Assembly: GCA_030680235.1 (NCBI GenBank)
Contig: JAUXWQ010000018.1
Span: 1 to 24,000, forward strand
Direction of reading: 5' to 3'
DNA length: 24,000 bases
Source: Coxiellaceae bacterium
Lineage (GTDB): Bacteria; Pseudomonadota; Gammaproteobacteria; Coxiellales; Coxiellaceae
A program made the position numbers. Below are positions 3,001-6,000 of this stretch, piece by piece. Positions within the stretch are counted from its first letter, which is position 1. Every line of letters starts with the position of its first letter.

Positions 3001-6000
3001 GGTTTTGGTGATGCAGTGACACCTGGCCCGGTTGATTCGCAATATCCGGTGTTAATAAAAGAATTTCCTTCGCCACAATTGCAAACTTATCCTGTATATA
3101 CCGTTGTTGCTGAAAAATTACATGCAATCGCTTTTCATGGTGCTGCGAATAGTCGTGTAAAAGATTATCTGGATTTGTTTGTTATTTTTGAACGTGAGCA
3201 ACTTGATCCAAGGTTATTACAAAAAGCAATTACAGCAACATTTGCAAGGCGGGGCAGTGTGATATCAAAAACACCATTGATTGGTCTAACAGATGATTTT
3301 GCAAATAATCCATTAAAACAAACCATGTGGTCTGCATTTTTAAGAAAAAATAAATTGTCAGATAAATCATTTCCTGCTGTTGTCAAAACGTTGCGGGGAA
3401 AATTACAGCCAATTTTGGATGTTGCTATCGTATGAAAAAAAATACAATGAATTAAAAATTATTCTCAGAAAAATATCATGATTCGCTGCCCTGTTTTTCA
3501 ATTTAAAATAACACTAAAAGAAATTGAACCTGTGATATGGAGGCGCATACAAATTTCAATTGCTAGAGATAGCTGATTTATGAGCACCCGTACCCACCCG
3601 GCATAAAAATTACAATAAAACAGCTAAAAATTGAAGAATTCAAATAATTTTTTCAAAATTAAATAGTTGAATATGTTGTCTTTAAAGAATTGTGTGTTTA
3701 GTAATATTAAATGAAATAATTGGGAGGTGTATCAATGAAAGAAATGAATGATAATCCCTCAATCGAATCGAGTGATAATGATTTTCAAAAGGTAAGTAGA
3801 GCGATTCTCAATATAACTGCTGGTGCTATACCTCTTGTCGGTGGTGTTTTAGCTTCTATTTCTGCTGCATGGTCTGAGCATGATCAAGATAGGGTCAATG
3901 ACTTTTTGAGATACCGTCAAAACCTGCTAGAAAAAGAGATAAAGGACCAGTTACAAACCATTAATGAAATCATGCAAAGATTAGAAAAAATCCATGGTGA
4001 CGTCTCGAAAAGAATAAAAAGTTCTGAATTTCAATCATTGGTTGAGAAAAGTTTTCGCAATTGGTCGGATATTAATACTCAAGAAAAAAGAGAGTATATA
4101 AGAAATATACTTTTAAATGCTGCTTCCACAAATATTTCGTCGGATGAAGTAATCAGGCTTTTTATAGAATGGCTTTATCGATATTCCGATTTACATTTTC
4201 AAGTTATTGTCTGTATATATCGGCATCCTGATGGTATTAGTCGTGGTGAAGTGTGGCGAATGATTGGAAAACAGGTTGTCAGAGAGGATTCTGCGGAAGC
4301 TGATCTTTATAAATTATTAATTCGAGATTTAAGTACTGGAGGTATCATAAGACAATATCGTCGAACAAATTCTCAGGGTGGTTTTATTAAACCGAGTGCA
4401 GCGAAATTATCACAACATGCATTTGAGCCAGCATTTGACTCCTCTAAACCATATGTTCTTACTGATCTTGGCCAGCAATTTGTTCATTATGCTATGAGTG
4501 ATGTATCAATGAAATTAGAGCAACAAACAACAAATAGATCTGAGGTTTAATGGTCGGACATTTATAATCAAGGTTAGTTCCTATTTTTGCATCAAAATTT
4601 TTATATTTCTTTTGAGTAGTTATATTATTTTTTACCCCTGTCTCTGTATCAAGCAAGCCTTCAGGCGCAGCTTGAGACAGTGACAGGGGATGCAAGCCCC
4701 TGTTTTATTTAGGTAAGTTATCAGGTTTTTAAGTGACGATAAAGTGACGGCGGCTTTTTTAGACAATAACATCGTTATTTTCTAAAAAAGCCGTTGCAAC
4801 AACAATAGTAGCGGTTCACGTAGTTCAAATAGCATCGCGTGCCATTTAAGCGATGTAAGGCGCAAGCCTTTGGCGTTAAGTTTTCAACTAAAAAAATCTA
4901 ATTAGCCAATTCGGCTTATTCAACAATCAATTAATCAATTTTTTCATTCATATTATTTTAGACAATAGTTGTAGTTCAGGCTGTAATTCATTCTTTTTGT
5001 TAAGTGATAAAAACTTAATTCTTAGTCAGTTAAAGGTATTTTATATTTAGTTAAGTTATTAAAAATATTATTTGGTAATTTTTTACTTCAGCATTTTAGT
5101 ATCCAGGTATTATATTTTTTTTATAAAAAATAGATCATTAGTGTTTAGTTCATTTATCGTTTTTAATTTTATTAATTATATAGGAGGTAATTTTTATGCG
5201 TTAAGTATTCAGGTTTAAATGTAAAAGTTCAATTTTTATCGGTTAATTTGTAAATTTATATGGGAAGTTATTATGAGTCAAATAAATACAGAAAAAAATA
5301 AATCAGTTATTGATAGTTCAGTATTAGATGGTCAAGAAAAGCATTTTATTGAAAATGAGTTATTTGAAAAGCTGTTAGCAGTACGTGAAGAAATTTATTT
5401 AAAAACAGAAATTAATGTATCACCTCGTAAATTAGTCAATATGCTATTAAAAAAATCTGATTTTGAAGCGTTACGTGATCAATTAATTCAGCAATATTCT
5501 TAAAGTTCTACATTATTAGTAAAGTCAAATTTTAAGGTATAGACAATATTTATTGTGTCAAAAAAAGTAGCGTTGGAACCGTAGGTCCCAACGCTAACGG
5601 CGAGCATTCGCCATTGTCGTATGCAGTGTTTTCACTGCTAATTTCGCACTTTTGCAGCGCAAGCTGCCGCCATCAATAGATGGTCTGTGTGCGAACACTC
5701 AACGAGTTTTAGAAAGCGACGCGACACAAGATTTATTAAATAATACACAGAGGAAAATTGATATGTCAGCCAAGCATGATTTAAAACATTCCATTATTCA
5801 TTTAACACGGCACAATAGGGATGGCAGCTTTAAAACACAAGGCAATCGAAAAGAGCGTTTGTTATATATTGCAGATCAATTATCTGAAGGGGGTTATAAA
5901 ATTCAACACATGAGGCAGCTTAAATTCAAACATGTGAAATATTTAGTTGATCGTTGGCTGCAAGAAAATTTAAGCGCTGGCACAATTAAAAATCGCATGA

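Follow-up and report, generated by a model that had tools for sequence, protein, structure and literature searches.

What does the single gene contribute that stands, on a tRNA-linked island of a Coxiellaceae bacterium, between an abortive-infection (Abi) gene pair and a recombinase? Here we analyse the 24,000-nucleotide (nt) stretch of contig JAUXWQ010000018.1 that carries this gene (hereafter, the window), whose 271-amino-acid (aa) product is identical, by exact look-up, to MDP1573767.1, a 'hypothetical protein' of a Coxiellaceae metagenome-assembled genome. With the balance of evidence standing about even, we favour the reading that MDP1573767.1 is a stand-alone, horizontally mobile anti-phage protein of the abortive-infection type, and that its family is a very distant relative, spread across Gram-negative bacteria and the Candidate Phyla Radiation (CPR), of the phage-resistance protein Abi-alpha (Pfam family Abi_alpha, PF14337, DUF4393). 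The family is uncharacterised and is unseen by present annotation and defence-finding resources.

A search of 5.8 billion proteins revealed at least 1,488 homologue clusters at 90% identity (E <= 1e-3), all of them unnamed and none with a precomputed Pfam domain, and when 1.84 billion representatives at 50% identity were searched exhaustively with a profile, 643 matched, 378 of them at E <= 1e-10. Scanning of one genome per species detected the gene in 323 of 185,579 species (0.17%), in phyla that include the Proteobacteria, Bacteroidota, Nitrospirota, Verrucomicrobiota, Omnitrophota, Atribacterota and many CPR/Patescibacteria. These numbers overturn the term 'orphan' that a preliminary description of this DNA had given the gene, if lack of homologues was meant. 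Because more than 1,400 homologue clusters exist and 43 alignment columns are invariant among 36 diverse sequences, the gene is real and lies far beyond a chance open reading frame (ORF). All 643 representatives are at most 348 aa long and none is a fusion, and the family, with members of ~270-300 aa, thus has one fixed architecture. Identity to the window protein in the species scan was typically 47-55%, and across loci L001-L080 approximately the same range is kept among Legionellales, Epsilonproteobacteria, Bacteroidota and CPR lineages (Kerfeld-, Falkow-, Saccharibacteria and others). A distribution this sparse, combined with conservation this high, points to horizontal spread under strong constraint. 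The tblastn searches found no match among 72,556 plasmids (PLSDB) or among 50,697 phage genomes (INPHARED).

To describe the protein itself, we built an AlphaFold2 (AF2) model with the family alignment (predicted local distance difference test (pLDDT) 74.6; predicted template modelling score (pTM) 0.64), in which the N-terminal residues 1-39 are effectively unmodelled. The four peptides quoted in the preliminary description all occur in the translation: AILNITAGAIPLVGGVLASISAAW (residues 23-46), YIRNILLNAAS (121-131), RHPDGISRGEVWRMIGKQ (163-180) and LIRDLSTGGIIRQ (195-207). The first of these is the Gly/Ala-rich hydrophobic segment named there, which alignment and hydrophobicity show to be conserved throughout the family: of its 24 residues 46% are Gly or Ala, G30, P33, G36, G37 and W46 are nearly or fully invariant in the 36-sequence alignment, and the best 19-residue Kyte-Doolittle (KD) average reaches 1.86 in the window protein, against a family median of 1.60. 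Judged from the sequence, such hydrophobicity would only just suffice for a transmembrane helix and is what glycine-zipper segments usually show, and glycine-zipper models gave weak matches (C19orf12 in 7 of the 36 relatives at E >= 0.04; Gly-zipper_Omp at E = 0.033 in relative P0128). Next comes the predicted coiled coil of about 60 aa, of which the helical nature held and the extent did not, since the model has one 38-residue helix (residues 48-85) with shorter helices after it. The helical core that follows carries the invariant 'RNILxNAA' helix (N124, L126, N128 and A130) together with D137, W146 and H154.

The remaining third of the protein is winged-helix-like, as had been guessed, and at the level of fold the guess is probably right. 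Compared with the PDB, the family profile weakly matched the linker histone H1.0/H5 globular domain (E = 0.003, residues 148-232), and Foldseek returned winged helices alone (PadR, MarR, LmrR and H1, at probability 0.9-0.99 but E = 0.08-0.3) and no full-length structural analogue. In the model this module is well ordered (pLDDT > 90) and begins with helices and a short strand, which a basic linker of variable sequence connects to a last strand and the C-terminal helix, with the motifs REDSAxADLYKLLIRDLSTGGIIRQ and, in the C-terminal helix, LTxLGQQFVHYAM. The C-terminal approximately 90 residues probably take the fold of PadR, MarR and linker-histone H1 proteins; however, the matches are weak and cover a third of the protein, its putative recognition helix is not basic and the remaining architecture is unrelated. 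Overall the protein is acidic (isoelectric point ~5.7), the winged helix is about neutral, and basic charge is found only in the variable linker at residues 211-232.

The window protein was tested directly against Pfam, NCBIfam, PHROGs and PADLOC (PADLOC-DB v2.0.0), and 36 relatives against Pfam and PADLOC. The sole PADLOC match of the window protein, PDC-M70B at E = 0.021, did not recur in the relatives and was dropped, and no PADLOC model matched the 36 relatives consistently. PF14337, whose gathering score is 29 bits, did not match the window protein at E <= 1 and matched two of the 36 relatives at E >= 0.035, more rarely than obviously spurious Pfam families did; the best score in the family was that of a divergent member, P0186 (21.6 bits, E = 2.4e-4). 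Judged by Pfam, the protein is therefore not a member of PF14337. The resemblance to Abi_alpha/DUF4393 suggested in the preliminary description thus stands for size (272 aa in Abi-alpha) and, in profile-profile alignment, for the NILLNAA motif, which falls on MFAKLIASS, and falls short at the level of Pfam membership.

Abi-alpha (EF2833), a 272-aa protein of prophage 6 of Enterococcus faecalis V583 on which DUF4393 was founded, acts alone and causes premature lysis of infected cells, with no known mechanism (PMC6356687). A DUF4393 protein has also been described in Staphylococcus phage phiNM1 (preprint). Of the phiNM1 proteins, gp03, encoded between the excisionase and cI genes, was rejected as having no Pfam match, and gp17 proved to be a true Abi_alpha, PF14337 being present on 120 of its 120 top relatives. 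The gp17 gene (L104, positions 129-986; record positions 8828-9685, minus strand) stands by itself, with a single-stranded DNA-binding protein module on one side and the gene for the replication initiator on the other, as is typical of morons. As reference we used an alignment of 33 sequences of the gp17 clade, all precomputed as PF14337.

Four weak, independent lines point to a distant link between the two families. Alignment of their profiles by hhalign was co-linear over up to 132 columns at E = P = 0.0025-0.0027 (probability 11-12%), pairing RNILxNAA with MFAKLIASS, LFIDWINxYSELHF with SFVEIIKQLSPxDA, LSTGGII with NLxRLGLI and LTxLGQQFVHYAM with LTPLGxxFxxxC; its scores of 29.9 and 29.1 were reached by none of 204 controls, four of them reversed (13.8-15.0) and 200 column-shuffled (maximum 27.2), the latter including motif-preserving 10-column blocks. 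The Pfam match of P0186 places its residues 96-199 on positions 6-108 of the PF14337 model, the region that holds the RNILLNAA helix of the window protein. On the hhalign register, the element order of the gp17 AF2 model (pLDDT 83.7) is co-linear with that of MDP1573767.1: a disordered N-terminus, a very long helix, short helices, the motif helix, two helices, a recognition-type helix, a strand, a variable insert, a strand and a C-terminal helix. Finally, both models match the phage protein A0A291AUV8 in BFVD, which is the only near-full-length alignment of the MDP1573767.1 model (221 columns, TMq 0.37) and the second of two BFVD matches below E = 0.1 for the Abi_alpha model. Both families, moreover, consist of single acidic proteins of ~270-285 aa on mobile elements near other defence genes. 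They differ in the beta-hairpin and helical insert of Abi_alpha, which MDP1573767.1 does not have, and in carriage: Abi_alpha is mostly prophage-borne in Firmicutes and Pasteurellaceae, whereas the present family is chromosomal, on integrative and conjugative elements (ICEs) and islands of Gram-negatives and CPR bacteria. Taken together, the family is probably a very distant homologue of Abi_alpha that would act in the manner of an Abi_alpha-type protein, outside that family as now defined.

The genomic surroundings were surveyed at 80 species-level loci with all-against-all clustering of neighbours. The most recurrent neighbour family occurred in at most 5 of the 80, and the gene is thus a solo module; a conserved two-gene system was rejected on the same count. 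In 85% of loci the next gene upstream shares its strand, and in 23 of 71 it is separated by less than 30 nt; the gene therefore often lies inside co-oriented arrays. An integron-cassette arrangement, suggested by these arrays and by a hairpin downstream of the window gene, was discarded, as no integron integrase is nearby and neighbour spacing is too heterogeneous. The immediate neighbours are very heterogeneous, and many copies sit between housekeeping genes with no element backbone. Among 147 immediate neighbours from the 80 species, the PADLOC matches listed were PDC-S54 (five times), mad2/mad8, PDC-S01/02/06/08/16, a Type IIG restriction-modification (RM) system, PD-Lambda-3 and dGTPase; those listed for the comparison set, genes 9-10 positions away, were mostly generic regulators, with one methyltransferase. 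The family is carried as cargo of mobile elements, namely ICEs, integrase islets and prophage-like regions. In 13 annotated contexts (Table 1), a PADLOC-recognised gene, of the kinds AbiE, CBASS cyclase, TIR, PDC-S02, PDC-S33, PDC-S54 and PD-T7-4, lay within two genes on either side in 7 and a recombinase within ~7 genes in 9, so that the stand-alone gene in a defence and mobile-element setting, first described for the window, recurs in independent lineages. Of 60 loci, 19 had a tRNA gene in the flank, and in 14 of these the homologue was located 3' of the tRNA, a weakly informative bias (one-sided p ~0.03). Integrase detection by iterated hidden Markov models from window seeds, which recovered 8 of 79 loci, was too insensitive and was not used.

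The PDC-S54 matches concern a protein, 204 aa long and with no Pfam match, that fits positions 4-198 of the 410-position model at E = 9e-39 and that adjoins the gene in 5 of the 80 loci; it can stand on either side, and the two genes overlap or are 2-22 nt apart. MDP1573767.1 itself matches neither PDC-S54 nor any other PADLOC model, and the pairing is seen in a minority of loci; the two genes may represent a split or modular two-gene variant.

Several element structures around relatives are recorded here in their own right. In one locus (L105, 5900-9747) a divergent member forms an apparent operon NfeD_TM - Band_7/flotillin - MDP1573767.1 homologue - beta-carbonic anhydrase, with overlaps of 4 and 14 nt, upstream of which lie Phage_CP76 repressor, GIY-YIG_3, PDDEXK_3 and Trypsin_2 genes. 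In another (L100, 9525-12732), three tandem tyrosine-recombinase genes just downstream of a TIR - homologue - MerR series resemble a recombinase-in-trio element. An Integrase_1/Phage_int_SAM_2 recombinase stands two to three genes downstream both in the window (5652-6644) and in a Legionella pneumophila ICE (L081, 10823-11725), a placement that suggests a shared Legionellales element backbone.

In the mechanism that we propose for an anti-phage MDP1573767.1, the protein would be inert in the uninfected cell. The helical core and the winged-helix/C-terminal module would detect a cue of phage origin, be it a protein or a nucleic acid; this step would release or oligomerise the N-terminal glycine-zipper segment, perhaps through the long helix; and the segment would then insert into or perturb the inner membrane, causing depolarisation or early lysis before progeny are made. 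The defence function, the division into sensor and effector domains and the action on the membrane are what we infer here. Early membrane collapse of this kind would match the premature-lysis phenotype reported for Abi-alpha, and a link to membranes is suggested by the KD of the glycine zipper (~1.6-1.9) and by the divergent member in an NfeD-flotillin operon. Single-protein Abi effectors that act on the membrane, AbiZ among them (discussed in PMC6356687), use a membrane-active segment to hasten lysis or depolarisation once the cell is infected. The logic proposed for MDP1573767.1 is the same, but no sequence or structural relationship to these effectors was detected, and its membrane action is putative. 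A bolder version, possible though doubtful in our judgement, would make MDP1573767.1 the founding example of a large overlooked 'Abi-alpha-like' superfamily branch in nearly all bacterial phyla, CPR included, in which a conserved glycine-zipper effector is fused to an Abi-alpha-type sensor core as a universal single-protein, membrane-collapsing defence, the ~50% identity reflects recognition of an equally conserved phage or host component, and some lineages may have a split form with the N-terminal half of PDC-S54.

A number of observations weigh against defence by a relative of Abi-alpha. The window protein has no significant Pfam, NCBIfam, PHROG or PADLOC match, and its family keeps ~50% identity between phyla, more than is usual for accessory or defence genes. 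Enrichment of defence genes among neighbours showed in the kinds of PADLOC match, among the 25 families listed, and not in their number: raw model counts were alike (138 for immediate neighbours versus 127 for genes 9-10 positions away), so the enrichment is suggestive and not a statistic; several contexts, besides, contain no defence gene. The N-terminal segment proposed as effector is borderline hydrophobic and is modelled at pLDDT < 50, and Abi_alpha has no such hydrophobic glycine zipper (median best KD 1.06 versus 1.60). As for kinship, the hhalign probability of ~12% leaves the link sub-threshold, reciprocal hmmsearch between the two families did no better than shuffles, the relatives of P0186 include no PF14337-annotated intermediates, Foldseek gave no direct match between the two models, and the common match to A0A291AUV8 is a weak one from either model (E = 0.18 and 0.025). 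In addition, the block E71-P72...G78-P79-A-L-E-A-S84-K-x-Y87 (phiNM1 gp17 numbering), invariant or nearly so in the 33 Abi_alpha sequences, falls outside the aligned region and its E-P...G-P-A-L-E-A-S-K pattern has no counterpart in the alignment of the present family.

Other functions were therefore weighed against the same data. MDP1573767.1 could be a housekeeping factor of mobile elements, that is, a membrane-tethered winged-helix regulator or a recombination or transfer accessory for integration, excision or maintenance of ICEs and islands, an explanation that we consider unlikely. A recombinase stands a few genes away in most contexts, and the L. pneumophila copy comes after the T4 coupling protein. 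In two Legionellales-type ICEs (L096, 6352-10632; L087, 4856-10914) the order Schlafen/AlbA_2-HATPase_c_4 ATPase, MDP1573767.1 homologue, thioredoxin-like gene and tyrosine integrase is kept, and stop/start codon overlaps among the last three suggest co-transcription with the integrase. Yet neither a recombinase family nor any other backbone gene is a conserved partner; the recombinases found nearby are of several types (Phage_integrase, Integrase_1, serine recombinase and tandem trios), and the many copies lying between housekeeping genes have no element backbone around them. The winged helix with its basic wing would suit such a factor, but the protein is acidic overall with a 'recognition' helix that is not basic, and regulators of this type seldom retain ~50% identity from phylum to phylum when the elements that carry them are different.

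The glycine-zipper N-terminus, its weak matches to C19orf12 and Gly-zipper families and the NfeD - flotillin (Band_7) operon with its 4-nt overlaps would also suit generic cargo that has nothing to do with phage, either an accessory protein for membrane stress or membrane microdomains or a toxin of the addiction type. We consider this distinctly unlikely: linkage to flotillin was confined to a single lineage, a gene found in 0.17% of species hardly fits a general physiological role, and the recurrent adjacency to dedicated defence genes would be left unexplained. Very improbable, in our view, is a role in anti-defence or entry exclusion, in which the protein would serve conjugative elements by shielding incoming DNA or blocking competitors. 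The L. pneumophila ICE copy does lie near ArdA and an orphan-looking Dcm/Vsr cluster, and ICE cargo genes of the family adjoin the T4 coupling protein and relaxase; however, anti-defence genes abound in plasmids and phages, and the absence of the family from both sets searched disfavours this role, as does the lack of conjugation genes at most loci, the window island included. An abortive-infection-type defence protein remains the reading that we prefer.

The features of the window and of the loci compared are collected in Table 1. ARAGORN, Pfam and PADLOC confirmed that the gene lies between an AbiEi/AbiEii pair and a recombinase module in a tRNA-linked island. The two AbiE genes are adjacent, overlap by 4 nt (2575-2578) and by Pfam and PADLOC constitute an AbiE type IV toxin-antitoxin pair. 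MDP1573767.1 is not part of it, because a gap of 299 nt separates AbiEii from its gene and AbiE is missing from the immediate neighbours of the other 80 loci. Ordinary chromosomal content (YCII, epimerase, GNAT, SnoaL, FUSC, NuoF-like) begins at position 7110, and the island is therefore about 6.7 kb in size; its right end, at about 7.0 kb, is set by gene content alone, as no second copy of the tRNA-Pro 3' end (attR) was found within the window. The well-formed gene with its GGGAGG Shine-Dalgarno sequence and its own downstream terminator hairpin was likewise found as first described. The 55-nt hairpin has z = -5.0, and none of 200 shuffles was equally stable; within 4635-4714 this hairpin and the smaller terminator stem both use the arm GACAGGGG and are, because of this common arm, mutually exclusive. 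The structures could be a compound terminator, a repetitive extragenic palindromic (REP)-like element or a regulatory switch, and an Rfam scan of positions 3300-5700 gave no match. Between the gene and the next one, 722 bp at 29% GC (4551-5272) contain no convincing ORF and may be decayed cargo or a regulatory or attachment (att) region of the island. Farther along, two large minus-strand ORFs of 517 aa (18355-19908) and 1,310 aa (19984-23916), with no Pfam family at E <= 1e-3, may encode secreted effectors of this Coxiellaceae genome.

Table 1. Features of the window, segments of MDP1573767.1 and contexts of its relatives (target, MDP1573767.1 or its homologue)
Feature	Positions	Strand	Basis or content
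tRNA-Pro (GGG)	201..276	+	ARAGORN; presumed island integration site
Tyrosine integrase (Arm-DNA-bind_3 + Phage_integrase)	454..1824	+	Pfam E = 7e-25, 3e-16
AbiEi antitoxin/regulator	1976..2578	+	Pfam AbiEi_4 E = 2e-9; PADLOC AbiEi E = 4e-81
AbiEii nucleotidyltransferase toxin	2575..3435	+	Pfam AbiEii E = 6e-47; PADLOC E = 5e-90
Shine-Dalgarno GGGAGG	3722..3727	+	7 nt before ATG; direct sequence reading
MDP1573767.1 gene	3735..4550	+	ATG start, 271 codons; ORF listing
Glycine-zipper segment (Gly/Ala-rich), residues 23-46	3801..3872	+	uncharged, conserved; family alignment
Long acidic helix, residues 48-85	3876..3989	+	AF2/DSSP; net charge -4.8
Helical core, residues 91-163	4005..4223	+	AF2; aligns to Abi_alpha core (hhalign; P0186 vs PF14337)
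Winged-helix-like module, residues 164-254	4224..4496	+	profile, Foldseek, charge profile
Hairpin, 55 nt, imperfect	4635..4689	+	downstream of MDP1573767.1 stop codon; dG -38.3 kcal/mol
Intrinsic-terminator-like stem + T-run	4682-4704	+	overlaps hairpin 3' arm; terminator scan
76-codon ORF	5273-5503		no homology to any library used
Second recombinase (Phage_int_SAM_2 + Integrase_1)	5652..6644	+	Pfam
HTH_17 (AlpA/excisionase-like) gene, last island gene	6771..6983	+	Pfam E = 2e-8
PDC-S54-half neighbour, upstream	L057 9360-9974; L058 9356-9928; L078 2860-3480		
PDC-S54-half neighbour, downstream	L066 10794-11411; L079 7209-7868		
Context, window			AbiE
Context, P0002			CBASS cyclase + SLATT + Schlafen-type ATPase, target, thioredoxin-like gene, integrase, TrwC
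Context, P0004			same trio as P0002, another ICE
Context, L. pneumophila P0016			ICE, immediately after T4 coupling protein; Integrase_1, ArdA, Dcm/Vsr/HNH downstream
Context, P0033			DUF4145 (PD-T7-4-like) - target - Zeta toxin - AAA_15
Context, Shewanella P0063			prophage-like region: RelA_SpoT (PDC-S33), NACHT, methylases
Context, P0085			TIR protein (PDC-S66/ThsB) - target - MerR - three tandem integrases
Context, L. massiliensis P0091			insertion sequence-rich region, YhcG nuclease (PDC-S02)
Context, Arcobacter P0075			NOV_C nuclease + methyltransferase
Context, P0084			integrase islet between housekeeping genes
Context, P0041			serine-recombinase element with DUF2188
Context, P0406 (divergent)			NfeD - flotillin - target operon
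Context, P0116			uninformative

New single-gene defence candidates are common. What appears new here is a large, very broad and structurally distinct branch related to a known Abi protein, and its conservation across phyla, its presence in CPR bacteria and the handle that it offers on the mechanism of Abi-alpha lift it above the routine. PADLOC, DefenseFinder and Pfam currently overlook these more than 1,400 protein clusters sitting in defence islands. Were the function not defence, the family would still represent a highly conserved, horizontally spreading membrane/winged-helix protein. To our knowledge, Abi-alpha is a widespread defence known by phenotype alone and has no solved structure. 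If the two are indeed sister families, of which the present one is distant and much more conserved, the putative membrane effector segment, together with tractable Gram-negative hosts (Vibrio, Shewanella, Pseudomonas and Legionella), would open a route to the mechanism of sensing and killing, and the class would no longer be confined to prophages of Firmicutes but would reach ICEs and islands in many bacterial phyla, among them the CPR, about whose immune repertoire little is known.

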